Assembly: GCA_011051855.1 (NCBI GenBank)
Contig: DRKG01000355.1
Location: 1-26,091 of the forward strand
DNA: 26,091 nucleotides
Source: a bacterium
GTDB taxonomy: Bacteria; Planctomycetota; UBA1135; UBA2386
Direction: 5' to 3'
Part shown: piece after piece, positions 93 to 16,810 of the stretch
How positions within the stretch are numbered: position 1 is the stretch's first letter
How the letters are laid out: each line of letters begins with the position of its first letter
Notes under the pieces: generated by a model
Told to the model about the DNA's origin: nothing
What the model saw: the letters and a program-made list of their open reading frames with translations, nothing else
Database searches by the model: none
Translations under genes and position numbers: made by a program

Positions 93-1027
93 CCGCCGCG
101 GAGAACGGGGCTCCGGTGGTGTCGGTGGTGGTGCTGAGTTGGAACACGCAGGCGTTGACGTTGGCGTGTCTGGGAGCACTGTTCAGGGAGACACCCCGGC
201 ACGCGCGCGAGGTCATCGTCGTCGACAACGGCAGCGAAGACGGATCGGCGGACGCGGTCGCGGCGCAGTTCCCGCAGGTGCGTCTTCTGCGCAACCAGGA
301 GAACCGCCTCTACGCCGCGGGCAACAATCAGGGAGCGGCGTTGGCGACCGGCGAGTTCGTGGTCACGCTGAACTCCGATACCGAAGTGCAGCCCGGCGCG
401 CTCGACCGGCTGGTCGATTTCTTGCGCGAGCATCCCGACTACGGCGCCGTGGCCCCACGGCTGAGCGACCCGGACGGCAGCGTGCAGCACGCTTGCCAGC
501 GGTTTCCGACCCTGTGGACGGCACTGTGCTTCGACTCGTGGTTCGGCACCTTCTGGCCCGGCAAGCGCGTCGTCGACCGCTACCTGATGCGCGACTTCGA
601 CCACCTCGAGTCGCGGGACGTCGAACAGCCGCCGGGCGCGGTGTGCATGCTGCGCACCCGGGACTGGCGCGAACTGGGTGGTTTCGATGAACGGCTCGCG
701 CTGTTCTACAACGACGTCGACCTGTGCAAGCGCGTGCACCAGCGCGGCCAGAGGATCCGCTACCTGGCGACCGCCGAAGTCATGCACCACCGCGGTGCCA
801 GCACCCGGAACTTCGCCAAGATGCTCGTCATCTGGCACCGCAACCGCCTCGCCTACTACCGCAAGCACTACGGCTGGTTCGGCGGCCTGTGGATCCGGCT
901 GTGTGTGCGGCTGCGGATCTGGGAAGAGTGGTGGAAGATCGGGCGCCGCAACCGGCGGGATCCCGGGCGCAAGAAGGCCGAACGTGACTTCTTGCGCCAG
1001 TCGCAGCGGGAGCTGTGGTCGTCGTGA
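89..1027 (+). CDS. Glycosyltransferase family 2 (WbbL/GT2-like), 312 aa
   Basis: Motifs VSVVVLSWN, VIVVDNGSEDGS, LNSD (DxD-like), GAVCMLR, GGFDERLALFYNDVDLC and EVMHHRGAS. GTG start with upstream GGTGGAG. Confidence 0.93.
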   Translation: MTAAENGAPVVSVVVLSWNTQALTLACLGALFRETPRHAREVIVVDNGSEDGSADAVAAQFPQVRLLRNQENRLYAAGNNQGAALATGEFVVTLNSDTEVQPGALDRLVDFLREHPDYGAVAPRLSDPDGSVQHACQRFPTLWTALCFDSWFGTFWPGKRVVDRYLMRDFDHLESRDVEQPPGAVCMLRTRDWRELGGFDERLALFYNDVDLCKRVHQRGQRIRYLATAEVMHHRGASTRNFAKMLVIWHRNRLAYYRKHYGWFGGLWIRLCVRLRIWEEWWKIGRRNRRDPGRKKAERDFLRQSQRELWSS

Positions 1028-2229
1028 AGGTCTGCTTCGTGACCTCGAACTACCCGCCCGAGGCGCGCGGTGGCACCGAGCAGGTGACGGTCGCGCTGGC
1101 GCGCGAACTGGGCGCGCGCGGCGTCGAGGTGGTGGTGGTCAGCGGAAGCGACCAGCCGCACGACGGCTGCGACGTGCGGGTCGAACGGCACGAGGGAACC
1201 ATCGTGCATCGCGTCTTCAAGACCGCCGAAGAATGGGCGGAGAAGGCGTTCGTGCAGGCGCGCGTGCTGCGACTGGTCGGCGATCTGCTGGCGCGCGAGC
1301 GGCCCGACGTGGTGCACGTGCATTCGTGTGCGGTGCTCGGGTGCGGCGTGACCCCCTGGTGCCGGGAGCGCGGGGTGCCGGCGGTGATGACGTTTCACGA
1401 CCAGTGGGTGACCTGCCCGCTGTTCTTCCGCCTGCCGCAGGGCGGAGTCGCCTGTCCGGTCGACGACGATCGCGCGCCGTGTGTCGTCTGCACGGCCGAC
1501 GCACTGGCTGCCGACACCGGGTTCACCGCCCGCGCGATCGCCGAACGCGACCGGCTGGTGCGGGCCGAGGTCGCGGCCGCTTCGGCGTGCACCGCACCGA
1601 GTCGGACGGCGGCGGACCTGGTGCGGCGTTGCCTGCCGTACGACGGGCGGATCGAGGTGGTCCCGCACGGCCTGGTGCGAAAGGTGGCCGCCGCGGACCG
1701 CGCCCCCGAGCCGGTCGCCGGGGAGCGGCTGCGCATCGGCACCTTCGGCGGCCTCGTCGCCGAGAAGGGCGTGCGCGAGTTGCTCGCGGCGGCGGCGCCG
1801 CTCGATTGCGAGCTGCACCTGTCCGGTCGCCTGCACGGGGGTGGCCTCGCCGAAGAACTCGCCGCCCGCGCGGCGGCCGGCCTGTGCTACCGATACCACG
1901 GGCCCTACGGCCCCGAGGACCCGCATCCGGCGCGCAATCTGCACCTGGCGGTGTTCCCCTCGAAGTGCCAGGAAACCTACGGTCTGGTCGTCGACGAGGC
2001 GCTCGCGCACGGTGTGCCGGTGGTCTGTTCAGACCGGGGCGCGCTCGGGGAACGGCGGCACGCGCCGGGCGTGTGCGTCACACCGCTCGAAGCGTTGCCG
2101 GAAACGCTCGCCGACCTGATAGGTTCTCCACAGCGGCTCGCGGCTCTGCGCGCGGCGATCCCGGCCGAGCTGCCGACGATCGCCTCCTCCGCCGACCGCC
2201 ACCTCGCCCTCTACCGATCGCTCGTATGA
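1024..2229 (+). CDS. Glycosyltransferase family 4 (GT-B, retaining)
   Basis: N-terminus MKVCFVTSNYPPEARGGTEQ, then PDVVHVH, TFHDQW and C-terminal ETYGLVVDEALAHGVPVVCS. Start placed at GTG 1024 (GTGA overlap) rather than 1015. Confidence 0.92.
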   Translation: MKVCFVTSNYPPEARGGTEQVTVALARELGARGVEVVVVSGSDQPHDGCDVRVERHEGTIVHRVFKTAEEWAEKAFVQARVLRLVGDLLARERPDVVHVHSCAVLGCGVTPWCRERGVPAVMTFHDQWVTCPLFFRLPQGGVACPVDDDRAPCVVCTADALAADTGFTARAIAERDRLVRAEVAAASACTAPSRTAADLVRRCLPYDGRIEVVPHGLVRKVAAADRAPEPVAGERLRIGTFGGLVAEKGVRELLAAAAPLDCELHLSGRLHGGGLAEELAARAAAGLCYRYHGPYGPEDPHPARNLHLAVFPSKCQETYGLVVDEALAHGVPVVCSDRGALGERRHAPGVCVTPLEALPETLADLIGSPQRLAALRAAIPAELPTIASSADRHLALYRSLV

Positions 2230-2960
2230 AGCACCTGTTCTCACCGCTGCTGCCGAAGGACCCGTTGCAGGGGCCGGTGTTGGTGCTGGCCGCGCATCCG
2301 GACGACGAGGTCATCGGCGCTGGCGGCATGCTCGCATTCCACGCACGGCAGGGTCATGACGTCACCGTCGTGCACGCCACCGACGGTGCCGCCGGGGATC
2401 CCGGTGCGCGCGAACCGGGCGACATCCGCGACGTGCGTCGGCAGGAGGGGGCCGAGGCGTTGCGCCGCCTCGGGCTCGGGCCGGCGCGGCATTGGGATCT
2501 GCCGGACGGGCAGTTGCCGGAACGGCTCGGGGAACTGACTTCGCGCATCGTCGACGTGATGCGCGAGGTCGCGCCGAAGACCCTCTACACGTTCCACGCC
2601 GGCGAGGCGCACCGCGACCACCGCGCCGTCGCCAAGGCCTCCGCCGACGCCGCCCACGCGCTGTCGGACGATTGCCGCTGCCTGTGCTACGGCGTCAACT
2701 TCGTGCCCGGCGGTGGCACCCTGTTCGATACCACCGATACCTACCCGAAGGCCTACGAGGCATTGAAGGCCTACAAGAGCCAGAATGCCTACATCGACCT
2801 GCCGGGCATGAGCGAGCACCGCTGCCGCGCCGCGACCGTCAACCTCGACATCGGCGGGGTGCTCTACGGCGAACTGTTCCTGGACCTGACGCCGCGCGAA
2901 CTGCCCGAGGTGCACGCGCTGCAGGACCGTCTCCACCGATTCGTGCAGCGCGAGGCATGA
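2226..2960 (+). CDS. PIG-L family de-N-acetylase (LmbE/BshB-like), 244 aa
   Basis: VLVLAAHPDDEVIGAGG, TDGAAG and HRDH metal/catalytic motifs. ATG 2226 overlaps the GT4 stop (ATGA). The track ORF 678..2960 is in frame but over-extended. Confidence 0.92.
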   Translation: MKHLFSPLLPKDPLQGPVLVLAAHPDDEVIGAGGMLAFHARQGHDVTVVHATDGAAGDPGAREPGDIRDVRRQEGAEALRRLGLGPARHWDLPDGQLPERLGELTSRIVDVMREVAPKTLYTFHAGEAHRDHRAVAKASADAAHALSDDCRCLCYGVNFVPGGGTLFDTTDTYPKAYEALKAYKSQNAYIDLPGMSEHRCRAATVNLDIGGVLYGELFLDLTPRELPEVHALQDRLHRFVQREA

Positions 2961-3895
2961 CTGAAGAACCGCAGCAACGACCGACCGTCTCGCTGGTGAT
3001 CTCGGTCTGGAACCGCAAAGACGACCTGCGCGAGAACCTCGCCGCGATCCGCCGGCAGACCGTCAAGGCCGACCAGGTGATCGTCGTCGACAACGACTCC
3101 AGCGACGGCACGCCGGAGATGGTCGTCGCGGAGTTCCCCGAGGTGCAGTTGATCCGCATGCCGCACTCCGACTACGGCGCCTGCGAGACGTTCAACATCG
3201 GCTTCGCCAGCGCGTTCGGCGAGTTCGTCGGCATCCTCGACGACGACGTGATCCTGCCGCCGACGTTCGTCGAGCACATGTTGCAGAAGTTCGCCGAGGA
3301 ACCGGCGACGACCGCGATCCTGTCGCCGAAGGTGGTCGAGCCGGAGATGCCGGAGTGGTACCTCGCCAACGAGAAGCTGCACAGCGAGCGCTACCTGGCG
3401 ACGTTCCGCGGTTGTGGCTCGATGGCGCGCGCCCACGCCCTGCGCGAGGCGAAGTGGTACGACATCCGTTTCTTCATCTTCGGCAACGAACGCGACCTGA
3501 CGACTCGGCTCCTGAACCTCGGCTATCGCGTCAAGATGTTCCCGGCGGTCGAGGTGTTCCACAAGGCGCCGTTCGGCATGCGCCACGGCAAACGCAGCCT
3601 CTACTACCACGTGCGCAACTTCTGGCTCTATGCGTTCAAGTACCTGCCGTGGAGCCAAGTGCTGTGGTTCCCGTTCGCGTTCCTGAAGAAAGGCCTCGGC
3701 GGCAAGCGCAAGTCGGACGGCGGCGAAGTCTCCGACGCGGTTGGCACGATCGGTCTGTTCGACAACATCAAGGGCGTGAAGTGGGGGTGGTGGATCTGCT
3801 GCAAGGCGACCCTGAACGCGCTCGCCAACCTGCCGTACTGCCTGCGCCACCGGCAGGTCTGTCGGCACCCGGACTTCGAGCCGCCGCTCAGGTAG
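2957..3895 (+). CDS. Glycosyltransferase family 2, 312 aa
   Basis: VSLVISVWNR, VIVVDNDSSDGT, ILDDDV and FFIFGNERDL. ATG 2957 overlaps the upstream stop (ATGA). Confidence 0.92.
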   Translation: MTEEPQQRPTVSLVISVWNRKDDLRENLAAIRRQTVKADQVIVVDNDSSDGTPEMVVAEFPEVQLIRMPHSDYGACETFNIGFASAFGEFVGILDDDVILPPTFVEHMLQKFAEEPATTAILSPKVVEPEMPEWYLANEKLHSERYLATFRGCGSMARAHALREAKWYDIRFFIFGNERDLTTRLLNLGYRVKMFPAVEVFHKAPFGMRHGKRSLYYHVRNFWLYAFKYLPWSQVLWFPFAFLKKGLGGKRKSDGGEVSDAVGTIGLFDNIKGVKWGWWICCKATLNALANLPYCLRHRQVCRHPDFEPPLR

Positions 3896-3913
3896 CATGC
3901 TCGCCCTCACCTC

Positions 3914-4969
3914 GTGATCAGTGCGATCGTCGTCAATTGGAACGGGCGCGAATACCTGCCCGGGTGTCTCGACGCCCTGCTGGCGCAAGATCCTGCGCCA
4001 GCGGAGGTCATCGTCGTGGACAACCACTCTGACGACGGCTCGCGCGAGCTCGTCGCGGAGCGCTATCCCGGCGTACGCGTGATCGACACCGGTCGCAACG
4101 GCGGGCCGTGCTTCGCGCGCAACGTCGGGGCTGCCGCGGCCAGCGGCGATCGCCTGTTGTTCGTCGACAACGACGTCGAACTGCACGCGGGAGCCTTGGC
4201 GGCCTTGATCGGGTGCATGGATCGGCACGCCGGCACCGCACTGGTGCAGGCCCGTTCGCTGTGCGGTGACGCTCCCGACGTGGTGCACTACGACGGCGGC
4301 GATCTGCACTTCCTCGGCACGCTGGTGCTGCGCAACTGGTACCGGCCGCGGGCGGAGGCGGTCGATCCCGAGGGGCCGATCGGGGCCGCGATCGCACTGT
4401 GCTTTCTGGTCGCGAAGGCCGCCTACGAGGAGGTGTCGGGCTTCGACGAGAACCTGTTCATCCTCTACGAGGACAACGAGTTCTCCTACAAACTGCGCAT
4501 GCGCGGCCACGCCATCCGCCTTTGCCCGAAGGCGCTGTGCACCCACAAGGCCGGCACGGTCGGGCTCAGCGTGCGCGGCGACGCCGCCTATCCCGGCCGC
4601 CGCACCTACCTGCACAGCAAGAACCGCTGGTACGTGCTGTTCACCTGCATGCGTTGGCGCACGCTGGTGTTGACGGTGCCCGCCCAGTTGCTCTACGGCA
4701 TCGTCTATGCGGCGTTCGGCGTCGGCCGCGGCCACCTCGGTTCGTGGCTGCGGGGCAAGTGGGAACTGCTGTGCTTGCTGCCGAAGGCGCTGCGGGCGCG
4801 CGGCCCGGCGCAGCGCGGTCGCACGGTTCCCGATCGCGACCTGCTGGTGGCGACGCCGATGACCCTGAATCCGGGGCTCGCCGACCGAGGGGCTTCGGCG
4901 TGGCTGCGGCGCACCATGGATCGCTTCTTCGCCGGCTACTGGCGGCTGGTGCGGAGGCTCTGTGGCTGA
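3914..4969 (+). CDS. Glycosyltransferase family 2, 351 aa
   Basis: ISAIVVNWNG, VIVVDNHSDDGS, FVDNDV and GFDENLFILYEDNEFS. Confidence 0.93.
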   Translation: MISAIVVNWNGREYLPGCLDALLAQDPAPAEVIVVDNHSDDGSRELVAERYPGVRVIDTGRNGGPCFARNVGAAAASGDRLLFVDNDVELHAGALAALIGCMDRHAGTALVQARSLCGDAPDVVHYDGGDLHFLGTLVLRNWYRPRAEAVDPEGPIGAAIALCFLVAKAAYEEVSGFDENLFILYEDNEFSYKLRMRGHAIRLCPKALCTHKAGTVGLSVRGDAAYPGRRTYLHSKNRWYVLFTCMRWRTLVLTVPAQLLYGIVYAAFGVGRGHLGSWLRGKWELLCLLPKALRARGPAQRGRTVPDRDLLVATPMTLNPGLADRGASAWLRRTMDRFFAGYWRLVRRLCG

Positions 4970-5894
4970 TCGTGGCGCGCCCGAAGTGGCCGCGCTGCTG
5001 CTGAACTGGCGTGGTGCGGCGATGACCTTGCAGTGCCTCGGCGACCTGCTGCGGGTCGACGGCGTGACGCTGCTGGTGCTGGTGATCGACAACGGCTCGG
5101 GCGCGGCCGAGGTCGATCGGTTGCGGGCGGGCATCGACGCGGCCGACGCCAACGGCCACGCGATCGAGCTGTTGGCGTTGCCCGACAACCTCGGCTTCAC
5201 CGGCGGCATGAATCGCGGCCTGCGGCTCGCCGCGGCGCGCGCCGTGCCGTTCGCGCTGGTGTTGAACAACGACCTGCGGTTGCCGGCGGACTTCTTGCGG
5301 CCATTGGTCGACGTGCTGCGCCACGACGCGAGCGTGGCTGCGGTCGGCCCGACCGTCGTGCACCCCGACGGCACGGTCTGGGCGGAGGGCGGTGCGGTTG
5401 CGTTCGCCGCCAACGCGCTGCGGCTGCACGGCCACGGGCGATCCCCGCGCCCGCCGAGCCACGGCCCGGAGGAGGTCGGCTTCGTGCCGGGCGCCTGCCT
5501 CTTGCTGCGCACGGCCGCCGCCGCGGAAATCGGGTTCTTCGCCGACGACTACTTCATGTATTGGGAGGACGTCGATCTCGGCGCCCGACTCCGGCGGCAG
5601 GGCCACAAGAACATCTGGCTGCCGTGGGTGCAGGTCGAGCACCACGCCGGCAGTTCGTCAGGGGGCGGCCGCTCCCCCCTGCGCAAGTTCCTGATGGCGT
5701 GCAACGCGGTGCGCTACCTGAAGGCATGTGGCGGCGCGCAAGGCTGGCTCGGGTGGTTCGTGTTCGACGTGCTGTTGTGGCCGCTGGCGTTCGCTCGCGG
5801 ACCGCGTGCAGCGTGCGCCAAGCTGCGCGGCACCGTCGCCGGCCTGTGCGGTCACCGGGCGAGTGCCGCCGACGTCATCCGCTATCTCGGCTGA
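4962..5894 (+). CDS. Glycosyltransferase family 2, 310 aa
   Basis: LLLNWRG, VIDNGSG, NLGFTGGMN, LNND, GACLLLR and FFADDYFMYWEDVDL. Overlaps the upstream gene by 8 bp. Confidence 0.93.
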   Translation: MADRGAPEVAALLLNWRGAAMTLQCLGDLLRVDGVTLLVLVIDNGSGAAEVDRLRAGIDAADANGHAIELLALPDNLGFTGGMNRGLRLAAARAVPFALVLNNDLRLPADFLRPLVDVLRHDASVAAVGPTVVHPDGTVWAEGGAVAFAANALRLHGHGRSPRPPSHGPEEVGFVPGACLLLRTAAAAEIGFFADDYFMYWEDVDLGARLRRQGHKNIWLPWVQVEHHAGSSSGGGRSPLRKFLMACNAVRYLKACGGAQGWLGWFVFDVLLWPLAFARGPRAACAKLRGTVAGLCGHRASAADVIRYLG

Positions 5895-7105
5895 TCCCGG
5901 CGGGCCCGCAGGAGGTGGTCGAGGCGCTCGTCCGGCGGCAGCGCAAGGAGCTGCTCCTGCAACGCGCGCCGCCGTCGCCGTTCGTCGGCCGGGGTCGGGT
6001 CGTCTTCGGTGCGGGTCCGGGTGCGCGCCGGGTCGAACGGCAGCGCGACCTCGGCGGTGGCGAGTTCTGGCGCTATGACCACGTCGCTGTTGCTGTGCGG
6101 GGCGAACTCGCTCGCCACCGTGGCGTCGATCGAGCCCGGTTCGCCGGGCAACACCGTCGCGACGATCGTCACCGACCCTGCGCCGGCGAGTTGGCGGGCG
6201 CAGGCGAACCAGCGCTTGGGAGTGAGGAGTGCCCGCGCATCGAGCCCCGGCTGCACCCAGGCGCCGGACGGCGCGCTGGTCCTCGCCTCGGCGCGTGTCA
6301 GCGCCGTCAGGGAATCGAGCAGCAGCAGCACGTCGTGGCCGTGCTCGGCCTGTCGCCGGGCGCGTTCGGCCACCAGTGTGGCGGTGGCTACGTGCCGGTC
6401 GGGTGCCGCGGCGAACGGCGTGTCGACGACCTCGATGCCGGAGCCGTCGAGCCGCGCGCGCACGGCCGCACCGTCTTCGGGGCGCTGGTCGAGCAGGCAG
6501 ATGGTCGTGCGCACTTCGGGGTGTCGGCGTTGCACCGAGCGCGCCAGGCGGGCGAGCAGGTGGCCGCGTGCGAAGGACTCCGGGGCGCGCAGTAGGACGC
6601 GGTGGCCGAAGCACCACGGGGCGAGTGTCTGCAGGGCCCACAGTTCGTCGTCGTCGTCTCCCAGCGACAATGGCCGGGTCGCGACCATGGGCGTGCGCGC
6701 GTCGAACGGCGCGATGCGGTCGAGGTGCTCGGGTGGCTGGCCTTCGACGGCGTCGACGTGCAAGAGGGCGAAGAACCGTTCCCCGCTGCGCGGCGCACGC
6801 ACCGGTCCTTGCACGCGGTGACCTTGCTGTAGGTTCAGGCTGCGTATCTGGCTGGGGCTGACGTAGGTGTCGACGGCGCTCGGCTCGTAACCGAGTTCGA
6901 TCGCACGCAGGAACCCGAACCCTTCCGGCAGCACCGTCAGCACGCCGTCGGCCTCGATGGGGTCACCGCGGCCGAGGTGGGCGGTGAGCACCGCCGCCGC
7001 CAGTTCGTCGGTGTTGAGGTGGGGGCGCAGCTCGCCGCCGAGTTCGAGTGCGCGTCGCAGCAAATCGTCGCGCGGCGTCGCCAGCAGTTCGCGCACGCTG
7101 GTCAT
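5882..7105 (-). CDS. rho: Transcription termination factor Rho homolog, 407 aa, with degenerate ATPase motifs
   Basis: Colinear with Rho: DGVLTVLPEGFGFLR, DTYVSPSQIRSLNL, GERFFAL, LLDSLT, PKRWFACAR and GSVTIVAT. ATG 7105 overlaps the coaE stop (ATGA). Walker A reads APESFARG. Confidence 0.93.
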   Translation of the reverse strand: MTSVRELLATPRDDLLRRALELGGELRPHLNTDELAAAVLTAHLGRGDPIEADGVLTVLPEGFGFLRAIELGYEPSAVDTYVSPSQIRSLNLQQGHRVQGPVRAPRSGERFFALLHVDAVEGQPPEHLDRIAPFDARTPMVATRPLSLGDDDDELWALQTLAPWCFGHRVLLRAPESFARGHLLARLARSVQRRHPEVRTTICLLDQRPEDGAAVRARLDGSGIEVVDTPFAAAPDRHVATATLVAERARRQAEHGHDVLLLLDSLTALTRAEARTSAPSGAWVQPGLDARALLTPKRWFACARQLAGAGSVTIVATVLPGEPGSIDATVASEFAPHSNSDVVIAPELATAEVALPFDPARTRTRTEDDPTPADERRRRRALQEQLLALPPDERLDHLLRARRDQPR

Positions 7106-7746
7106 GCGTCTCCTCCGAGCTCGGCCAGTACCGCGGCGACGGCGGCTCGGGTCCGTGCGAGGTCGGAGCCGTTGTCGATGACGTGTTGGCTGCGGGCGCG
7201 CTTCTCGTGCAACGGCAGTTGGTGCCGTTCCCGTCTCTGCAGTTCGCCGGGCGGCCAGCCGCGCGCCCGGGCGCGCCGTTCGCGCACCTCGTCGTCGGCC
7301 GCGACGAATACGATCGTGTCGCAGTCGGCGGCAAGACCGGCTTCGAACAGGAGCGGCACGTCCAGCAGCGCGGTTTCGCCGGCGGAGCGCGCGGTCGCCA
7401 GCTCGGCGCGGATCCTGGCGCGCACCCGCGGGTGCACGATCTCCTCCAGGCGGCGGCGGGCGTCGGCGTCGGCGAACACCCGCGCGGCCAGTGCCGGGCG
7501 ATCGAGGGCGCCGTCGCGCACGAAGCCGTGGCCGAGGTCGGCGGCGACCGCCGCGACCACCTCGGGGTCCCGTGCCACCTCGCGGGCGAACTCGTCGGCG
7601 TTGATGTGCCGGATCCCGTGGGCCGCGAACAGCTCGGAGACGGTGGTCTTGCCCGCCGCCACGCCGCCCACGAGCCCGATGACGAGGGGCTTCTCGGGCC
7701 GGAACGGAACGGGGCGGCCGGTTGGGCCGTCGGCGCCACTGCGCAT
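7102..7746 (-). CDS. coaE: Dephospho-CoA kinase, 214 aa
   Basis: VIGLVGGVAAGKTTVS P-loop, INAD, LDRPALAARVFAD, LEEIVHP, DVPLLFE and VIDNGS. Confidence 0.95.
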   Translation of the reverse strand: MRSGADGPTGRPVPFRPEKPLVIGLVGGVAAGKTTVSELFAAHGIRHINADEFAREVARDPEVVAAVAADLGHGFVRDGALDRPALAARVFADADARRRLEEIVHPRVRARIRAELATARSAGETALLDVPLLFEAGLAADCDTIVFVAADDEVRERRARARGWPPGELQRRERHQLPLHEKRARSQHVIDNGSDLARTRAAVAAVLAELGGDA

Positions 7747-7800
7747 GCCTCCATCCTGGGGGAGACGGCGGGCGGAGGCAAGACGCGCGCGGAAGCCGCC

Positions 7801-7828
7801 TTGACCACGGGGGGTTCGCTCCTAAGAT
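7801..7828 (+). promoter_or_regulatory. Sigma70-type promoter for the 7976 gene
   Basis: TTGACC (7801-7806), 16 nt, TAAGAT (7823-7828), in the divergent intergenic region. Confidence 0.65.
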
Positions 7829-7975
7829 CTTGCGTTCCCGCGTGCTGACCCGTGCCCTCGGGCTGGCGCGCCGAGTCCGTCCCGAACACTCTCTCCGAAG
7901 AGCCCTCACTTCTCCCCGCCGCTGTCCTCCCCTCGGCAGCGATCGCACAGCACAGACCCCTTGGAGTTGGTTCCA

Positions 7976-9241
7976 ATGCACAATCGCCAGAGCGGTGCCG
8001 CGCACGTCCCGATCATGTTCTTCCTCATCCTCCTGGTGATGTTCCTGGGGGCCCTGGGGTTCGCCTGGATGCAGCAGACGAAGAACGGCGAGCTGATCAA
8101 GGCCCGCCAACAAGCGCGGGCCGACCTGCAGGTGCTGAAGGAGAAGGAGCTGCTGATCCAGCACTACATCGAGGACCTGTTCAACGTTCTCAAGAAGCCG
8201 GGGTCGTACACCGGCCGGCCGCAGTCGAAGGCGCTCTACGGCGACGCGACGCTCGAATACCCGGGCGTGATGAATCCGACCGAGATCAAGGCCGTGCTCG
8301 ACGCGGCGGCGAACGACGCGAAGGTCGCCACGGCGCCGTCGCTGGAAGCGCTGCTCGGTTCGATGGTGACCCGGATCAACACCCAGGAACAGCGCATCAA
8401 GGAACTCGAGGCCGAGCGCGACAAGGCCATGGCGGCCAAGGCGACCGGCGACCAGCGCTACACGCAACTCGAGGGTGAGGCGCGCTCGACCGCAGCCGAG
8501 ACGGCGTCGAATCTCGAACAGGCTCGCTCCGACTACGAGGCGGCGAAGAGCGACCGCGACCGTCGCATCATCGCGCTGCAGGACAACGTCAACAACCTGC
8601 GCGACCAGATGACGCAGGCCAAGGAAGCCGCCGATGCCCGCGAGAAGGAACTGCTCGGCAAGATCGGCTTGCTGCAGACCCAGTTGTCGGCGGTCACCGA
8701 GCGCAACGCCCTCAACCAGCCGCCCCAGGTCGCCGACGGCAAGATCATCGCGGCGGAGAACAACACGCCGGTCGGGTTCATCAACCTCGGCCGCAAGGAC
8801 CTGCTGCAGCGCGGCACCGTGTTCCGCGTGAAGAGTGCCAACAGCGACGCCGTCAAGGGCTACTGCCAGGTGACCCGCGTCGAGGAGGAGCGCTCGCAGG
8901 TGCGCTTCTACGACTTCGTCGACCCGGTCGGGGACTTCGCCCGCCCCGGCGACCTGCTCTACAACGACCTCTACACGCCGCGCGTCACCCGCACGATGTA
9001 CCTGATGGGTCGCTTCATCACGCCGAAGGAGGACATCGCCAACATGCTGCGCCGCCTCGGCAACCGCGTCGTCAACAAGATGGGGCCGGGCGTCGACACC
9101 GTCGTGCTCGGCAACGACCCGGTCAACGAGGCCGGCGACGGCTTTGCGTCGGTGCAGGACAGCGAGGAGTTCAAGCTCGCCAACGAACTGCGCGTCGAGT
9201 TCACCTACCTGTCGAAGATCAGCGACCTGCTCAAGCTCTAG
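7976..9241 (+). CDS. N-terminally membrane-anchored coiled-coil protein with a beta-rich domain and BRCT-like C-terminus, 421 aa
   Basis: GGAG 9 nt before ATG 7976; hydrophobic stretch IMFFLILLVMFLGALGFAW; long E/K/Q/A heptad region; GFINLGRKDLLQRGTVFRV; C-terminal MYLMGRF...LRRLGNRVVNKMGPGVDTVVLG resembles a BRCT fold. Strong G/C bias at third codon positions. Confidence 0.85.
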   Translation: MHNRQSGAAHVPIMFFLILLVMFLGALGFAWMQQTKNGELIKARQQARADLQVLKEKELLIQHYIEDLFNVLKKPGSYTGRPQSKALYGDATLEYPGVMNPTEIKAVLDAAANDAKVATAPSLEALLGSMVTRINTQEQRIKELEAERDKAMAAKATGDQRYTQLEGEARSTAAETASNLEQARSDYEAAKSDRDRRIIALQDNVNNLRDQMTQAKEAADAREKELLGKIGLLQTQLSAVTERNALNQPPQVADGKIIAAENNTPVGFINLGRKDLLQRGTVFRVKSANSDAVKGYCQVTRVEEERSQVRFYDFVDPVGDFARPGDLLYNDLYTPRVTRTMYLMGRFITPKEDIANMLRRLGNRVVNKMGPGVDTVVLGNDPVNEAGDGFASVQDSEEFKLANELRVEFTYLSKISDLLKL

Positions 9242-9329: not shown

Positions 9330-10313
9330 GTGCAGTTGGACGACCCCAGGATCCGCGAAGCGCTCGACGACGATGGCGATGGTGCCGGCGGCGCCGGCAA
9401 GCCCGAGCAGTTGCCGCGCATGTCGTTCGGCGACCATCTCGACGAACTGCGCAAGCGGGTGATCCGTTCGCTGCTGGCGATCGGAATCGCGATCCTCGCG
9501 GTGTTGCCGTTCAAGCAGGAGGTCACCGAGATCCTGATCGAGCCTTACCGCGTGCAGTGGCGGATCGGCTTCGAGAACTGGATCGAGCAGCTCCAGGAGG
9601 AGAAGGCCCGCGGGGAACTCGACGACCTCGGCGAAGGCTTCTTGGCCTTCAGTCTCGAGAACAAGGACAAGATCCTCGCCGGCGGATTCCGCTGGGACTA
9701 CCTGCTCGAACGCATGTCGGGTTATCCGGTGCCGTACAGCCTGTACGCGACCGGTGGCCTCGAGGACATGCTCGCGTTCATGTGGTTCTCGTTGATCTTC
9801 GCGCTGGCGATCGCCAGTCCGGTGGTCGTCTGGCAGGCGTGGGCGTTCGTGGCGGCGGGCTTGTACAAACACGAACGGGCGGTGTTCTACCGCTACTTCC
9901 CGTTGATGGTGGTGCTGGTTTGCGCGGGTGTCTGGTTCGGCTACCGGATTGCGCTGCCGTTCTCGCTCGGCTTTCTGGTCAGCCTGATGGATCCGAGCCA
10001 GGTGAAGGCGATCTTCAGCATCGGCCAGTTCCTGACCCTCGAGTTCACCCTGACGGCGGCGATGGGGGTCATGTTCCAGTTGCCGCTGATCATGCTGGCG
10101 TTGCAGAAGGTCGGCCTGGTGCGCCATCGGGCCTTCGTCAAGCACTGGCGGGTCACGGTGCTGGTGATCTTCTGCTGTTCGGCGCTGTTCACGCCGCCGG
10201 AGCCGGTGTCGATGATCCTGATGGCCGCGCCGATGATGCTGCTTTACCTGTTCGGCCTCCTGCTGACGTGGCGGGCGAGCAAGCACGAGCAGGCGTTGCC
10301 GGAGGCGTCGTGA
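9330..10313 (+). CDS. tatC: Twin-arginine translocase subunit TatC, 327 aa, with enlarged first external loop
   Basis: MSFGDHLDELRKR, SPVVVWQAWAFVAAGLYKHE, FQLPL and LFTPPEPVSM; about 6 hydrophobic segments. Confidence 0.95.
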   Translation: MQLDDPRIREALDDDGDGAGGAGKPEQLPRMSFGDHLDELRKRVIRSLLAIGIAILAVLPFKQEVTEILIEPYRVQWRIGFENWIEQLQEEKARGELDDLGEGFLAFSLENKDKILAGGFRWDYLLERMSGYPVPYSLYATGGLEDMLAFMWFSLIFALAIASPVVVWQAWAFVAAGLYKHERAVFYRYFPLMVVLVCAGVWFGYRIALPFSLGFLVSLMDPSQVKAIFSIGQFLTLEFTLTAAMGVMFQLPLIMLALQKVGLVRHRAFVKHWRVTVLVIFCCSALFTPPEPVSMILMAAPMMLLYLFGLLLTWRASKHEQALPEAS

Positions 10314-11551
10314 TCGCCGAGGTCGTCGCCATCGGCGATGAGCTGCTGCACGGCAGCCTGCTCGACAGCAACAGCAGCCACATCGCGGGCGAACTCGAAC
10401 GCATCGGTTGTGTGGTTGGGCGGTTCACCGTCGTCGGCGACGAGCCTGACGACCTGCGCGCGGCGCTCGCCGACGCCTGCCGGCGGGCCGACGTGGTGGT
10501 CGCCACCGGCGGCCTCGGGCCGACGCTCGATGACCGCACGCGCGACGTCGCCGCTGCCTTGGGCGGCCAGCCGCTGCGGTTCGACGAACGGAGCTGGCAG
10601 CAGATTCTCGCCTGGTTCGAGCGGCACGGCCGCTCGGTGCCGGCGAGCAACCGGCGCCAAGCCGAGCTGCCGGCCGCGGCCAGCGCGCTTCCGAACGCGG
10701 TCGGCACGGCGCCTGGCTTCAGGCTCACGGTGCACGACGCCGAGCTGTTCGTGTTGCCTGGAGTGCCGCGCGAGATGGCGGTGATGCTGCGCGACCACGT
10801 GTTGCCCGCGGTCACGGCGCTCGGTGGCTTGACGCCGACCGTGCAGCACTGCCTGCGTGTGCTCGGCCCGTCGGAAGCACTGCTCGGCGAGCGCCTCGGC
10901 GACTACATGCATCCCGGCCGGAACCCGGCCGTCGGCGTGACCGCAGCGGGCGGTCTGTTGACGGTGCGCATCGTGGCGCGCTCGGCGAGCGTCGCGGGCG
11001 CTCGGGCGCTGTGCGCCGAAACCGCCGCCGAACTGCGGCCGTTGCTGGGCGACTGGCTACTGGCCGAAGGCGATGCCGAACTGCCCGAACTGGTGCTCGA
11101 CCGCCTGCGCCAGAGCGGCACCACGATCGCGTTCGCCGAGTCGTGCACCGGCGGGCTGTGTGCGGCGCGGCTGACCGACGTCGCCGGTTCGTCCGCGGCA
11201 CTGCTCGGCGGGGTCGTCGCCTACAGCAACGCCGCCAAGGAACGCTTGCTCGGCGTCCCGCGGCGCCTTCTCGACCAGCACGGCGCGGTCAGCGAGCCGG
11301 TGGCGCAGGCGATGGCCACGGGTGGGCGCGACCGTTTCGGCGCCGATCTCGCGGTTGCGACCACCGGCATCGCCGGTCCGGGAGGCGGCAGTGCGCACAA
11401 GCCGGTAGGCACCGTCTGCTTCGCGCTCGCGCGAGATGGCGGTAGCAAGGCGTGGACGGTGCAGATCCCCGCGCTCGGCCGCGCGTTCGTGCGCGATCGC
11501 GCCGTGTTCGAAGTCTGGCGCGCGCTGCTAACGGAACCGAAGGGCGTATGA
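10310..11551 (+). CDS. cinA: CinA (molybdopterin-binding-like domain plus NMN deamidase PncC domain), 413 aa
   Basis: AEVVAIGDELLHG, TGGLGPTLDDRTR, LPGVPREM, AESCTGG, VAYSNAAK and TTGIAGP. GGAGG SD and GTGA overlap with tatC. Confidence 0.95.
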   Translation: MIAEVVAIGDELLHGSLLDSNSSHIAGELERIGCVVGRFTVVGDEPDDLRAALADACRRADVVVATGGLGPTLDDRTRDVAAALGGQPLRFDERSWQQILAWFERHGRSVPASNRRQAELPAAASALPNAVGTAPGFRLTVHDAELFVLPGVPREMAVMLRDHVLPAVTALGGLTPTVQHCLRVLGPSEALLGERLGDYMHPGRNPAVGVTAAGGLLTVRIVARSASVAGARALCAETAAELRPLLGDWLLAEGDAELPELVLDRLRQSGTTIAFAESCTGGLCAARLTDVAGSSAALLGGVVAYSNAAKERLLGVPRRLLDQHGAVSEPVAQAMATGGRDRFGADLAVATTGIAGPGGGSAHKPVGTVCFALARDGGSKAWTVQIPALGRAFVRDRAVFEVWRALLTEPKGV

Positions 11552-11576
11552 TGGGGGGCCGCGCGGCGTTGCCGCG
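11525..11576 (+). promoter_or_regulatory. Possible internal promoter and 5' hairpin for the kinase operon
   Basis: TATGAT (11547-11552) with weak CTGCTA 16 nt upstream. Hairpin CGCGGC-GTT-GCCGCG at 11562-11576. Confidence 0.3.
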
Positions 11577-11591
11577 TTCGCTCCGAGACGC

Positions 11592-14500
11592 GTGAAGATC
11601 TGCTTGTCCTGCGAGGGGGTCACCGAAACCCAGGCACAGCGCTGCGGCTTCTGCAACGCGCGTTTGGTCGCGACCGATGCGGTCCACTACCCGGTGCGAC
11701 GCGGCGAACTCGATGCCGGCAATCCGCTGCTCGGCACCGTGATCGACGGGAAGTACCGGCTGCAGTCCGTGCTCGGTCGCGGCGGCCTCGGCACGGTGTT
11801 CCGTGCCCAGCACGTCGGTTCGCTGGTGACGGTGGCATTGAAGCTGCTGCACCCGCGCTTCTCCGAGCGCCCCGAATACCGCCGGCTGTTGGTGCCGGAG
11901 GCGCGGCGGGCGGCGGCTGTCGTGCACGATCGGTGCGCGCGGGTGCTCGACGTCGGCGAAGGCGACGAGGGCATCACCTACCTGGCGATGGAGCTGGTGC
12001 AGGGCCAGACCCTCGACGAGGTGCTGCAGGCGGGTGCCCTGCCGGTGGCGCACGTGCTCGACATCCTGATCCAGGTATCGGCGGCGCTGGCTGCCGTGCA
12101 CGAGGCCGGCTTGGTGCACTGTGATCTGTCGCCGCGCAACGTGATGGTGTCCGTCGAGGGGGGACGGCTGGCGGCCAAGGTGCTCGACTTCGGCATCGCC
12201 CGCGGGGTCATCGCCGGGGTCGGTGGTGCGCGCGGCGAACTGCAGGGGTTCGCCAATCCGGCGTTTTCGGCCCCCGAACTGCTGGCCGGCGAAGACGTGG
12301 ATGCGCGCGCCGACATCTACTCGTTCGGCACGCTCGCGTGGTTGATGCTGACCGGGTCGATGCCGGTCGACGACGCCGATCCCGTGCGCGCCGCCGCGGC
12401 CGTGCGCGAGGGGCGGCTGTCCGCGTGGCCGAAGGTCGCCGGCGTGCCGGCGCGCCTCGCCCGGTTGGTGCAGTGCTGCGTGCGGTTCGCGCGGGAGGAA
12501 CGGCCGGCCACGGCGCTCGACGTGCACCGGCAGTTGGTGGCGCTGCGCACCGGCCGCGGCCGCTACCTGCCGCGCGTGGCGATGTTCGTGGCGACGGTTG
12601 CGCTGGTTTCGGCCTTGGCCGTGACCGGCAGCGAGCGCACGGCGTTCCTCGACCTGCAACCGGGGGCGCTGCTCGAGCTGTCCGCGGCACCGCCGCCGAA
12701 GGACGAGCCGGGCAGCGACCTGAAGGCCGGCGACCTGGACACGCTGGTCTGTCACTACGGCGGCTTCCGGCCGCGTCGGTTGCGCGTGGAACTGGCCCGT
12801 CCAGGAACCGTGTTGACCCAGATCGACCTCAACCCGGAGGTCGACCCTGCCGCCGGCACGTTGTTGCTGTCGACGGCGCAGACCGGGTGGAGCGAAGTCG
12901 TGCGCGGTCTGGTCGCGGCGAGTCGCGAAGGGCCGGTCGATCTCGCGTTCGTCGTGCCCGGCGTGGGGCTGCTCGGGGTCAGCCGGCTGCGAGTCGACGA
13001 GCGACCTCCGACGGTCGAGGCGCAGTTGGAAGGTGCGGCGACGACGCTGCGCTCGGATTCGGTGCTGCTCTATCGGGCCGCGGACGACCTCGGCATCGCC
13101 TCCGTGGCCGCCGAGGTGCGGTTCGACGCGGGGGGCGAGGCCACACTGGCGCTGCCGTCGGCCGGGGAACGGTTCGACATCGGTCGCGCGCTGCGCGGGC
13201 GGGAGGCGCTCGCGCCGCACGACAGCGTGCAGCCGCGCGGGTCGGGCAGCATCACCGTGGTCGTCACCGACCGGGCCGGCTTCCGCAGCGAGAGCGCCCC
13301 GCTGGCGTTCGAAGTGGCCGACCTCGGCGCCCCGGAAGTGACCGCGATCGAAGGCCCGGCCGGCCAGCGCAGTCTGACGCGGCTCGGCGACCGCTTGCGA
13401 TTCCGGGTGCGCCTGTCCGCGGGAGAACCCGGATGCCGTTTGCGCTGCGGGATCGCGGGCAAGGACCAGAGCGTCGACCTGCCGCTCGCCGTCGACGTGA
13501 CCGACGGGCCGGTATCGGTCGCGTGCGAACTCGCGGCGGGCGAACTGGTCGGTGACGACGACGAGATCGTGCTGCGACTCAGCGTCGTCGATCCGGCCGG
13601 CAACGTCAGTTCCGAGGAGTTCCCGGTGGCGGTCGTCGACCGGAGTCCGACCGTGAGGGTCGTCACGTCCGCGGCCGCGCACGGACCGCCGGTCGTCTGG
13701 CGCCGCGGCGAGCTGGTGCTGGGGCCCGAGGGGGGGGAGGTCGTGGTCGCGGCCGGCCGCGCCTACGCCGTCGTCGAAGCTCGGCTCGAATCGTCGGCAC
13801 GCGACCTCGAAGCCGATCGGGTGCGGCTCGGCGAAGAGCGTGATGGTGGCGTGGTCGTGCGGTTCGCGCCGTTGCCGGCCGGCTTGTTCCGCTTGCATCT
13901 GTCCCTCACCGAGCGCGCGGAGCGACTCTTGGCGCCGGTCCGGCGCAGCGTGGACGTGCGGGTGCTGCCGGCCCGGATCGAGGTGCAGGTGCCGACGACG
14001 AGGCCGCACTACGTGCCGGGTCTGCTGGCCGCCGGCGTGTTCGGCAAGCGCGCGGCCGGGGTCGTCGGCGGTCTCGGGGAGGGGCCGGGCTGGCGTCTCG
14101 CTGCCGAACTGCGGCCGTACGTGGGCGGTTGGTCGTGGAGCGGCGCGGTCGGTGCCGAGGTCGAGACGGAGGTGCGGCGCGCCGCGGCGCCGCTGTTGCC
14201 GGGGTTGGTGCCGGTGCGGGGCCGGAACCGGTTGCTGCTTCGGCTCGACGACGTGCTCGGCCGCCGCGTGTTTGTGGTCGATCGTTCGGGCGTTCGGCTG
14301 CCGATGGACGCCGACGGTCGGCAGTTGGTCGCCGACTACTGGTGGAGCGATGTCGCTCCCCAGCTCGTCGGCGAGGAAGTTCTGGTGGAGTACGGGCAGC
14401 CGGCGCGGCTGCGCGTGCGGTTGCCGCTGCCGTTTCGCGACGTCGAGCCGTCGGAACTGCGGCTCGGCGTGCTCAACCATGAGATCCGCGCCAGTCAGAT

Positions 14501-15746
14501 CGCGCACGACGGGGCGCGCTCGATCGCGTTGTTCGAGCTGCCGTTTGCGGATTGGAGTGCCGCCGCCGAGCTCGGTTCACGCCCCCGTGAGGACTACGCC
14601 AAGGGGCTGCGGGTGCGCATTCGGGCCGACATCACCACGCCGGCTGGCGAAGAACGTGCGCTCACGCTGCCGCTGACCACTACCCGCAGTACGCTGTCGC
14701 CGGTTCGGCTCGGTGATCTCGCCGCCCTGCCGGAAGGGCTGGCCGATCTCGTGCTGTTGCCGGTGCTCGGTCCCGACGGTGTGTTCGTCGAGCCTGTGCC
14801 ACCCGATGCTCCGCCGCGGTTCACCTTCCGACCGCAGCAACGGGTCGACGTGCGCAACATGCCCGACATCTTGTTGCAGGACCGCGAGATGGTCTGGCGG
14901 CAGGCGCTGGCGCTGGCCGAGGTCGCCGCGAGCCTGACCGACGAGGCGCTGCGGCGGCGGTGCGTGCACGCCTGCGACCCGTGCGGCACGTCGCGCCTGA
15001 CGACGGCCCGCCTGCTGCCGGCGAGTGCGCCTCCCGGCGCCGGTGACGAGGTGCTCGCCGGCGTCGATTACTACCAGTGCTGGGCGCTCAGCCGCCTGCT
15101 CGGTGTCGCCGTCGCGGGGGATCCGGCTTTGTTCCGGCTGCCGCTCGGTTGCGAACTCGAACGCGCCGCGTTCGGCGATCTGGGGGGGACGTCCTGCCAC
15201 GGCGTCGGCGCACACGGCGGCGCGGTGCGCATGTCCGCCTTCCAGCGGCCGGTCGCGCGCGGCCTGGCGCCCGCGTTCGAGCGCGAGGTCGGCGACGTGA
15301 TCGCGACCGCCTATGGGGTCGACTTCTACGGCCTCGACTTCGGCGTCAGCGAATGGGTGCTCGACCTGCCGCACGTCCCGGGCCGCGAGATGCTGCTGCA
15401 GTTGTGGACCGACGACCATGCGGTGCACCTCGGCCGGGCGCTTGCGATCGGCCGCGGTGAGGCCGACCCGCCGCCCGACCCGGTGGGGCCGCAGACGATG
15501 CTCGGCGTGGTGCGCGGCCTGGCGTTCGGCGATGTCGCCGGCCTGCTCGACCGCGACGGCAGCCGCCTCGACCCGGACCGCTACGAATCCGTGCCGACTT
15601 CGGTGCCGGGGGTGCTGCGCAGCGAGCAACTGCTGCGCGACGGCAGCGACCTGCTCGGCCGCGGCCGCGATCCGCGTCTGGCGCGGATCGGTTTCCGGAT
15701 CGCGGCCGACGCGGCGGCGTTGGCGCGTCGATGGGGGTATCGGTGA
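11592..15746 (+). CDS. Hanks-type Ser/Thr protein kinase, 1384 aa: Zn-ribbon, kinase, TM, Ig-like repeats, degenerate FGE-sulfatase-like domain
   Basis: CxxC...CxxC N-terminus; LGRGGLGTVF, VALKLL, HCDLSPRN, VLDFGIAR, SAPE, ADIYSFG and ERP; TM VAMFVATVALVSALAV; C-terminal FRLPLGCELERAA and GVSEWV. Confidence 0.9.
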   Translation: MKICLSCEGVTETQAQRCGFCNARLVATDAVHYPVRRGELDAGNPLLGTVIDGKYRLQSVLGRGGLGTVFRAQHVGSLVTVALKLLHPRFSERPEYRRLLVPEARRAAAVVHDRCARVLDVGEGDEGITYLAMELVQGQTLDEVLQAGALPVAHVLDILIQVSAALAAVHEAGLVHCDLSPRNVMVSVEGGRLAAKVLDFGIARGVIAGVGGARGELQGFANPAFSAPELLAGEDVDARADIYSFGTLAWLMLTGSMPVDDADPVRAAAAVREGRLSAWPKVAGVPARLARLVQCCVRFAREERPATALDVHRQLVALRTGRGRYLPRVAMFVATVALVSALAVTGSERTAFLDLQPGALLELSAAPPPKDEPGSDLKAGDLDTLVCHYGGFRPRRLRVELARPGTVLTQIDLNPEVDPAAGTLLLSTAQTGWSEVVRGLVAASREGPVDLAFVVPGVGLLGVSRLRVDERPPTVEAQLEGAATTLRSDSVLLYRAADDLGIASVAAEVRFDAGGEATLALPSAGERFDIGRALRGREALAPHDSVQPRGSGSITVVVTDRAGFRSESAPLAFEVADLGAPEVTAIEGPAGQRSLTRLGDRLRFRVRLSAGEPGCRLRCGIAGKDQSVDLPLAVDVTDGPVSVACELAAGELVGDDDEIVLRLSVVDPAGNVSSEEFPVAVVDRSPTVRVVTSAAAHGPPVVWRRGELVLGPEGGEVVVAAGRAYAVVEARLESSARDLEADRVRLGEERDGGVVVRFAPLPAGLFRLHLSLTERAERLLAPVRRSVDVRVLPARIEVQVPTTRPHYVPGLLAAGVFGKRAAGVVGGLGEGPGWRLAAELRPYVGGWSWSGAVGAEVETEVRRAAAPLLPGLVPVRGRNRLLLRLDDVLGRRVFVVDRSGVRLPMDADGRQLVADYWWSDVAPQLVGEEVLVEYGQPARLRVRLPLPFRDVEPSELRLGVLNHEIRASQIAHDGARSIALFELPFADWSAAAELGSRPREDYAKGLRVRIRADITTPAGEERALTLPLTTTRSTLSPVRLGDLAALPEGLADLVLLPVLGPDGVFVEPVPPDAPPRFTFRPQQRVDVRNMPDILLQDREMVWRQALALAEVAASLTDEALRRRCVHACDPCGTSRLTTARLLPASAPPGAGDEVLAGVDYYQCWALSRLLGVAVAGDPALFRLPLGCELERAAFGDLGGTSCHGVGAHGGAVRMSAFQRPVARGLAPAFEREVGDVIATAYGVDFYGLDFGVSEWVLDLPHVPGREMLLQLWTDDHAVHLGRALAIGRGEADPPPDPVGPQTMLGVVRGLAFGDVAGLLDRDGSRLDPDRYESVPTSVPGVLRSEQLLRDGSDLLGRGRDPRLARIGFRIAADAAALARRWGYR

Positions 15747-16810
15747 AGCGTGCCCTGTTGGCGCTGTTGGCGGCCCTCGTCGCGGGGTGCGTTTCGCCGC
15801 GCGACGACCTGCTCGGGCTCAGGAGCCGGCCCCCGCTCGACCGCGCCGTCCTGGTGAGCGGCGGCGCCTTCCTGGCGGCAACGCCGACCGCGGACGGCAC
15901 CTTCCAGTCCGATGAGGATCTCGAAGCCGAACGGGATGCAGAGGCGATTCCGTTCGCGGCGATCGTCGACGTGCTCGATCGCGCCGCGGTCTTCCAGCGA
16001 GTGGTCGCCGACCCGGATGCCGAACGCCGAGCGCGCCTCGGGCGGCAGTTGCGCACCCGCGACGACGATGCGCAGCTCGCGGCCTTCTTGCGGCAGGCGC
16101 GTGATCAGGGCTTCGATCTGCTGCTGGTGATCGAGGAACTACAGGACGGTCCGATCGAGAGTCTCGGCACCAACGATCGCTGGCCGGTGACGTTCGCGAC
16201 CTGGATCCTGCTGGGGGTCGGCGCGCTGATCCCCGACCACACCTTCGAGTCCCGCGCGGCGCTGCGTGTGTCGCTGCGCGAGTTGCAGACCGGCCGGGAG
16301 CTCGATTACCTGTTGTTGGTGCCCGGCCGCGTCGAACTGGCGTTGACCGAGCGCACCGACCTGCTCGGCCTGTTGATGTCGATCCTGGTGCCGCCGTTCT
16401 GGGTGCCTAGCGACCCGGCGACGCTGCGGCGTTCGGTGCGCGATACCGCCGAACGACGGCTGCTGCTGTCGATGGCGCGCGATCTGAAGAGTGAGGCGAT
16501 GCGCCGCAAGCTCGCCGAACTGGCCGCTGCCCGCATCGACCTGGTCGGTTCGCCGGAAGGGCCGGAGATCACGGTCGAATCGCGGGAAAGCCTCAGCGCG
16601 GTGGCGCTGCGGGCCGCGGGGCTCGGGGACGCCACCCCCTGGCGAGAGTTCGAGCGGGAACTGCTGCGCTCGGGGCGGATCGAGGGCGAGCGCTTCCTGT
16701 ATCGCGCGCTGCTGCCACGCATCGCCGACGGGCAGCCGTTCCAGGTCCGGGTCGCGACCCTGCGCGGCGGTATCGCGTCGGCGACGTTCCGGCTCGGGAG
16801 CGCGCGATGA
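15743..16810 (+). CDS. Lipoprotein of unknown function, 355 aa
   Basis: GTG 15743 overlaps the kinase stop (GTGA). MKRALLALLAALVAGC is a basic/hydrophobic signal peptide with a VAGC lipobox. Confidence 0.85.
   Translation: MKRALLALLAALVAGCVSPRDDLLGLRSRPPLDRAVLVSGGAFLAATPTADGTFQSDEDLEAERDAEAIPFAAIVDVLDRAAVFQRVVADPDAERRARLGRQLRTRDDDAQLAAFLRQARDQGFDLLLVIEELQDGPIESLGTNDRWPVTFATWILLGVGALIPDHTFESRAALRVSLRELQTGRELDYLLLVPGRVELALTERTDLLGLLMSILVPPFWVPSDPATLRRSVRDTAERRLLLSMARDLKSEAMRRKLAELAAARIDLVGSPEGPEITVESRESLSAVALRAAGLGDATPWREFERELLRSGRIEGERFLYRALLPRIADGQPFQVRVATLRGGIASATFRLGSAR

Follow-up and report, generated by a model that had tools for sequence, protein, structure and literature searches.

A Rho homologue with a predicted dead ATPase motor and a conserved RNA-binding head in Planctomycetota

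Rho is regarded as a homo-hexameric motor with an indispensable ATPase, and the known protein regulators of Rho (Psu, Rof/YaeO, Hfq, NusG and RfaH) are unrelated to it. The subject of this study is a rho-like gene on a 26,091-nt contig (DRKG01000355.1 of GenBank assembly GCA_011051855.1; the whole contig is referred to as the window) from a member of the Planctomycetota (UBA1135; UBA2386). The gene lies at positions 5882..7105 of the minus strand and encodes, as an uninterrupted translation of 407 amino acids (aa) plus stop, a protein here called P0001, which is very probably a catalytically dead, selectively maintained RNA binder. Should this be true, P0001 would represent a regulator or non-catalytic subunit derived from Rho itself.

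P0001 resembles canonical Rho, as known from Escherichia coli (TIGR00767 / NF006886; PDB 1PV4, 3ICE and 8Q3P), in three-part architecture, length and fold, and shares with it the primary RNA-binding residues (with Y110F in P0001), the Walker B aspartate, Arg212 and the Arg366 finger. Unlike canonical Rho, it lacks the P-loop, E211, K283 and T286 of the Q-loop, K326 of the R-loop, K336, R353 and F355. Non-catalytic subunits are known from other P-loop ring machines, namely F1-ATPase alpha and the clamp-loader delta-prime, and these are like P0001 in combining a RecA/AAA-type fold and an arginine finger with the loss of their own catalysis; F1 alpha still binds nucleotide, however, whereas P0001 is without a P-loop, and a ring shared with an active partner is only conjectured for the dead Rho.

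Full-length Rho proteins that occur beside a second Rho without an N-terminal domain (NTD) are termed 'Group A', in a scheme that reportedly follows D'Heygere et al. 2013. Like P0001, the Group A proteins of the Planctomycetes-Verrucomicrobia-Chlamydiae (PVC) group and Actinomycetota have an NTD, an RNA-binding domain and an ATPase fold, but in the pairs compared in a 2024 survey (PMC11347177) the catalytic residues are conserved, whereas in the present pair these residues are gone from the full-length member and survive in the NTD-less one only. The 'Rho-like' proteins of Baekduia soli and Conexibacter woesei (PMC11347177) consist of NTD and RNA-binding domains only, and thus resemble P0001 in carrying a head without a working motor; they have no recognizable ATPase domain, however, while P0001 keeps one that is complete, predicted to be well folded, and constrained. 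A description of an ATPase-dead Rho family was not found in the searchable literature, including the 2024 survey, which treats Rho diversity, and a 2025 review on Rho-dependent termination, a range that covers neither the survey supplement nor D'Heygere et al. 2013. A preliminary description of the locus, made from the sequence alone, had likewise named no such family.

The motor-dead protein, its family and its rates of change

Residues 4-384 of P0001 align to E. coli Rho chains with E ~4e-61 (phmmer against the PDB), and homology to Rho is therefore not a chance match. In a Pfam search, P0001 matched PF07497 (Rho_RNA_bind) with 86-90 bits, while the match to PF00006, the ATP-synthase alpha/beta nucleotide-binding domain, reached 26.5 bits and stayed below the cut-off of 29.5. 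The protein was matched from end to end by TIGR00767 (249.9 bits) and NF006886 (255 bits), in both cases under the respective cut-offs of 509.45 and 315, and NF041509 (paralog_Rho2; Rho, short form) gave 163.8 bits against a cut-off of 628.

Residue states were read from alignment and numbered by E. coli Rho from NC_000913.3; all positions given here are on the minus strand of the window. The N-terminal helix bundle (residues 1-47, 6965..7105), which forms three helices in the structural model, aligns to residues 3-46 of E. coli Rho and corresponds to the Rho NTD. In the oligonucleotide-binding (OB)/cold-shock-like RNA-binding domain (6728..6949, PF07497), with the motifs GFGFLR, DTYVSPSQIR and ERF, the primary site keeps F62, F64, R66, D78, Y80, E108 and R109, and Y110 has become F. 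The Walker A motif APPKAGKT is reduced to the remnant APESFARG (residues 174-181, 6563..6586), which has no GK[ST]; the changes K181S, G183A, K184R and T185G leave the P-loop absent. Glu211 is replaced by Gln and Arg212 is kept in DQRPE (residues 206-210, 6476..6490), and the Walker B strand LLLLDSLTAL (6299..6328) keeps Asp265 while Arg269 is changed to Ala. The former Q-loop has been remade as the family-specific PSGAWVQPGLD (6239..6271), with K283A and T286Q, and K326 of the R-loop and K336 have become S and A, respectively. K352, R353 and F355 are all substituted, the exact pairing at these positions being aligner-dependent. The equivalent of the arginine finger, R366, is retained in RTRTE (6005..6019) and is invariant in the family. 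The preliminary description had placed the Walker A remnant and DQRPE at exactly these coordinates and its residue calls all hold, although it did not stress the retention of R212, D265 and R366; the motif alignment also supports the non-catalytic protein with a retained RNA-binding head that it predicted.

AlphaFold2, run with the family alignment, modelled P0001 with a predicted local distance difference test score (pLDDT) of 96.4 and a predicted template-modelling score (pTM) of 0.93. Foldseek returned E. coli Rho as the top match of this model (TM 0.91 over 404 columns at 33% identity; 8Q3P and 6WA8). From the model confidence together with this similarity, the ATPase-fold domain is predicted to be retained as a folded unit.

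Since the G+C content is 70% and the frame is open for 1214 codons, an open frame alone is weak evidence for a functional gene, and comparative evidence was therefore relied on. A protein-database search with P0001 identified ~60 clusters at 42-54% identity, mostly labelled as Planctomycetota metagenome-assembled genomes (MAGs), with canonical Rho following after them at 35-38% identity. GK[ST] is absent from P0001 and from these ~60 relatives, in which the Walker A site typically reads AP..WPRAR. The position of E211 is occupied by Q in 51 of 51 family members, R212 is present in 50 of the 51, the Walker B D265 in 50-51 and R366 in all; the equivalents of F62, F64, R66, D78 and E108 are likewise invariant (51/51). 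K326 and K336 are lost, and a new motif, PSG[AR]W[IL][QC]PGLD, replaces the Q-loop family-wide. Among the other 50 members, 80 columns show conservation of 90% or more, and P0001 agrees with the family at 75 of these (94%); 16 of 16 dead copies examined, from 7 genera, follow Rho colinearly without any frameshift. The changes to the motor are thus family-wide and conserved, which argues against random loss. The databases name these proteins 'transcription termination factor Rho' or 'hypothetical protein', and because of this, a survey that tallies 'functional Rho' from domain content can misassign the gene for the working terminator.

Two further full-length copies of the same family, L110 (genome G021) and L119 (genome G147), are far more decayed, with RNA-binding-site motifs that are still recognizable. 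L119 has lost both R212 and the R366 finger and keeps the RNA-binding site. A contig search for related loci was dominated by canonical Rho, with which the head motif is common, and returned one true relative (L008). Similarly, the score in a phylum-wide profile scan does not separate dead from active copies, and active full-length Rho proteins of other orders score ~340-360 bits against the dead-family profile.

Selection was estimated as the maximum-likelihood ratio of nonsynonymous to synonymous substitution rates (omega) under the codon model GY+F3X4+G4. For 13 dead copies, omega was 0.144 over the whole gene, 0.087 in the RNA-binding domain, 0.133 in the ATPase-fold domain and 0.224 in the N-terminal helices. 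The corresponding values were 0.049 for the active NTD-less copies of the same taxonomic family, 0.043 for active full-length copies of sister families, and 0.086 for full-length copies carrying K184R, which are described below. The closest dead pairs, with a synonymous divergence (dS) of 0.5-0.7, gave an NG86 omega of 0.17-0.23. The gene for P0001 is more relaxed, with pairwise omega values of 0.37-0.62 against three relatives, yet 0 of 200 bootstrap replicates reached 1. By these comparative estimates, the dead gene is maintained by purifying selection and is not a decaying pseudogene. The preliminary description had proposed a test of whether homologs share the loss of Walker A and E211 while purifying selection holds the RNA-binding domain, which is what the ~60 clusters and the omega values indicate, and simple decay is excluded; the constraint is not confined to that domain and extends to the ATPase-fold domain. 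Loss of the catalytic residues, with fold and purifying selection kept across species, is the pattern of a pseudo-ATPase derived from Rho.

Origin, the second Rho and motor-dead lineages elsewhere

The source assembly is a MAG of 566 contigs that is 84.5% complete. A second Rho, P0123, is encoded on another of its contigs (C212, L001:1099-2625, plus strand), with the motor motifs intact: PPRSGKT, DERPEE, the R-loop and the arginine finger are all present. The preliminary description had suggested that the genome be searched for a second, canonical rho; the search did yield a copy with a complete set of motor motifs, but P0123 has no Rho NTD (no Rho_N), its N-terminus being instead an Arg/Gly-rich low-complexity region. 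Its RNA-binding site is also non-canonical, with EGNGWLR, a three-residue insert (SIPNGD), and RGPQR instead of GERY. NF041509 matched P0123 with 366 bits, again below the cut-off of 628. The position of Q-loop K283 is occupied by Gly in P0123, which is unusual for a working Rho. The dead and the NTD-less active paralogs are ~35% identical and separated long ago. P0123 has the sequence features of the 'Group B / type 2d' Rho described from two-rho genomes (PMC11347177); Moreira et al. (NAR 2024, PMC11347177) counted 116 genomes with such pairs, of which 30 belong to the PVC group.

Across 41 genomes of the order to which the window belongs, representing 10 families and 24 genera, a profile search recovered a full-length copy in nearly all, together with a second copy whose match starts only at about residue 50. 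In 32 of the genomes, the full-length copies were classified by motif. The genus of the window and several genera within its family have a dead full-length copy. Another five genera of this family carry GRT (K184R), or SRR in one copy, at Walker A, with DERPE kept and the loops partly intact, and in the other families of the order the full-length copy is fully canonical. In 33 of 33 relatives' loci compared, of which 31 come from genomes of the order, the gene immediately upstream is coaE. Given this conserved synteny, the dead gene is the positional ortholog of the full-length Rho that is active in sister families.

In the window, coaE, which encodes a dephospho-CoA kinase (7102..7746, minus strand; PF01121, 138 bits), lies in the same operon as the dead rho, and its TGA stop overlaps the ATG of the latter at 7105 (ATGA). 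A Shine-Dalgarno-like GGAGGA (7111..7116, minus strand), recognized by reading the sequence, is located 5 nt 5′ of this ATG. From this arrangement the dead rho shows predicted translational coupling to coaE and a putative strong Shine-Dalgarno sequence.

In a quick maximum-likelihood tree (LG+C20, SH-aLRT), the NTD-less copies formed one clade (support 100), as did the dead and K184R copies together (SH-aLRT 100), with the K184R forms branching first. The latter clade grouped with the active full-length copies of the order, outside the NTD-less (B) clade, at deeper forks that are weakly supported; long branches and a skewed composition affect several of the dead rows and make fine placements uncertain. 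The preliminary description had assumed the dead gene to be paralogous to a normal Rho, and this has to be reversed: by descent the dead gene is the ortholog of the full-length Rho, and it is the working enzyme of the genome that is an unusual, NTD-less paralog.

One of the K184R forms, from another genus of the family (L117, G023:C270:2146-3384), has the GRT motif and matches TIGR00767 with 504 bits. It is full-length and is apparently the sole Rho of its 10.3-Mb, 90%-complete genome, in which an NTD-less copy was not found. K184R is also present in some Actinomycetes Rho (PMC11347177). On both grounds an initial labelling of the K184R forms as 'half-dead' was dropped, and these forms may, judging from their motifs, still be active.

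An exhaustive profile search of 1.84 billion representatives was also performed, and the best 150 matches were taken. The dead-family pattern is carried by ~24 of the top matches among these, and further Rho-like proteins, in which the head is intact and the motor degenerate, occur lower among the best 150. One of these groups, the P0273 clade (P0282-P0295; metagenomic, some labelled as Pseudomonadota or Deltaproteobacteria MAGs), is a separate motor-dead lineage. Its head matches that of E. coli Rho exactly; its Walker A is erased, A or T stands in place of E211 and H in place of D265, and no R366 remains. The proteins closest to it (P0296-P0298 and P0301) are GRT (K184R) forms. Unlike the family of P0001, this proteobacterial lineage has lost the Walker B Asp and R366, and it is not a close relative of that family. 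The series from active through K184R to dead forms, recurring in an unrelated lineage, constitutes a natural experiment on a ring motor becoming a pseudoenzyme. In the ESM Atlas, the two feature clusters nearest to P0001 are annotated 'Rho family' and are commonest in Myxococcota; an ATPase domain is detectable in only 55-77% of their members, which may represent another degenerate lineage.

Candidate functions

The explanation favored here for the role of P0001, held tentatively and at somewhat less than even probability as a complete mechanism, is that of a motor-less, ring-forming binder of Rho-utilization (rut) RNA that tunes termination by the active paralog. The ATPase-fold domain would be retained as an oligomerization scaffold and not as an enzyme, and through it P0001 would assemble into a Rho-like ring or open ring. 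Such a ring would display a crown of pyrimidine-binding sites and would thereby bind C-rich, unstructured (rut-type) RNA, while RNA threading and translocation would be impossible without the P-loop, Q-loop and R-loop. By occupying Rho loading sites, or handing them over, P0001 might then tune, and most likely restrain, termination by the active paralog. In favor of this explanation, the RNA-binding site alone persists in all decayed copies, those without R366 included, and it is also kept in the independent proteobacterial lineage. The loss of motor motifs beside an intact head, the family-wide changes with their new shared motif, the omega values, the predicted retention of the fold, the active second Rho of this genome and of nearly all of the 41 genomes, and the arrangement with coaE speak for it as well.

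Several observations weigh against it. Between the genome of the window and that of a congener, the dead copies are separated by a tree path of ~1.6 substitutions per site, compared with ~0.07 for the active copies; constraint on the dead copy is therefore clearly relaxed, its rate of evolution being 10-20 times that of the active paralog in the same genomes. The invariance of R366, R212 and D265 would not be needed by a plain scaffold and may reflect contact with a partner that binds nucleotide. Whether P0001 restrains termination or assists it is a guess.

The main rival, judged somewhat less probable than the favored explanation, holds that P0001 and the active NTD-less paralog share one mixed Rho ring, in which the dead copy is a non-catalytic subunit. 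In such a ring the dead copy would contribute the NTD, the canonical RNA-loading site and, in trans, the arginine finger, and the paralog would contribute ATP hydrolysis, a division of labor that would be analogous to that of F1-ATPase alpha/beta or the clamp-loader delta-prime. The dead copy always co-occurs with an active NTD-less copy, and the two are complementary, since the active one has a non-canonical site and no Rho_N and the dead one a textbook head; R366, R212 and D265 are held constant (50-51 of 51 members) despite the missing P-loop, and the entire ATPase fold is under selection. Hetero-hexamers have also been suggested as a possibility for two-Rho genomes (Moreira et al. 2024, PMC11347177). 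However, the paralogs are only ~35% identical and anciently separated, and the contrast between the omega of 0.049 for the active copy and the fast evolution of the dead copy is unlike that expected of tightly co-evolving interfaces. Dead subunits are, moreover, generally known from E. coli Rho to poison a sequential ring motor. The invariant arginine finger is not treated as decisive for a mixed ring, since L119 and the proteobacterial lineage are without R366 and keep the head. The still broader proposition, that a repeatedly evolved, undescribed class of endogenous termination regulators exists and that a heteromeric, F1-like Rho ring divides the labor in this Planctomycetota family, between a dead subunit with the canonical RNA-loading head and an arginine finger and a motor subunit without the NTD, is doubtful and would have perhaps one chance in a few of being right.

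It is less probable again that the scaffold has been re-used outside termination, as an RNA chaperone or protector, as an RNA-polymerase-bound factor of the 'stand-by' type, or as a decoy for phage Rho inhibitors. The new conserved motifs, that is, the W-containing P-loop remnant and PSGxWxxPGLD, suggest a remodelled pocket or surface and not mere loss, and a motor-dead Rho arose independently in the proteobacterial lineage, both of which are consistent with such re-use. On the other hand, the neighborhood (coaE, glycosyltransferases and a conserved unannotated gene) is without defense, phage or polymerase genes, and its synteny is merely inherited from the active ortholog. The preliminary description had named an anti-terminator, a dominant-negative tuner, an RNA chaperone and a Psu decoy as candidate roles; none of the analyses presented here contained a pointer to the phage-decoy role.

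A redundant Rho copy that is heading for loss, with its frame open by chance at 70% G+C, is more improbable still. The very fast evolution of the dead copies, an omega about three times that of active copies, the 1214-codon open frame, by which an open frame is weak evidence, and the much more decayed L110 and L119 are the features that such a relic would have. Against it, 16 of 16 dead copies in 7 genera are colinear and without frameshifts, omega is 0.13-0.14 at dS values well above zero, and P0001 keeps 94% of the family-conserved columns; new invariant motifs have appeared, the fold is predicted with confidence, and the Shine-Dalgarno sequence and start-stop coupling are retained. Least credible of all is an enzyme that still hydrolyzes NTP or moves along RNA with unconventional residues: although the Walker B Asp, Arg212 and Arg366 are kept, an Arg stands at the position of K184, and K184R is found both in the apparently sole Rho ('GRT') of a 90%-complete genome and in some Actinomycetes Rho (PMC11347177), P0001 has no glycine-rich loop and no Ser/Thr for Mg coordination, its general base is Gln in 51 of 51 members, its adenine-stacking and RNA-gripping residues are lost, and its PF00006 score is under threshold.

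Neighboring genes

Downstream of the dead rho, and convergent with it, lies a gene for a family-2 glycosyltransferase (4962..5894, plus strand), the 3′ ends of the two genes overlapping by 13 nt; this neighbor is kept within the family. No terminator-like hairpin was seen between the two convergent genes, and scanning 5600-8100 for promoters and terminators yielded no useful result on the minus strand. The glycosyltransferase gene is the last of a plus-strand series (678-5894) that consists of a gene for a PIG-L-type deacetylase followed by three family-2 glycosyltransferase genes. On the other side, a gene for a 426-aa protein with no Pfam match (7961..9241, plus strand) is divergent from coaE-rho, an arrangement that is syntenic across the order. 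It is followed on the plus strand (9557-17694) by genes for CinA (MoCF_biosynth + CinA_KH + CinA), a 1384-aa Ser/Thr protein kinase, a 359-aa open reading frame product and a PP2C phosphatase.

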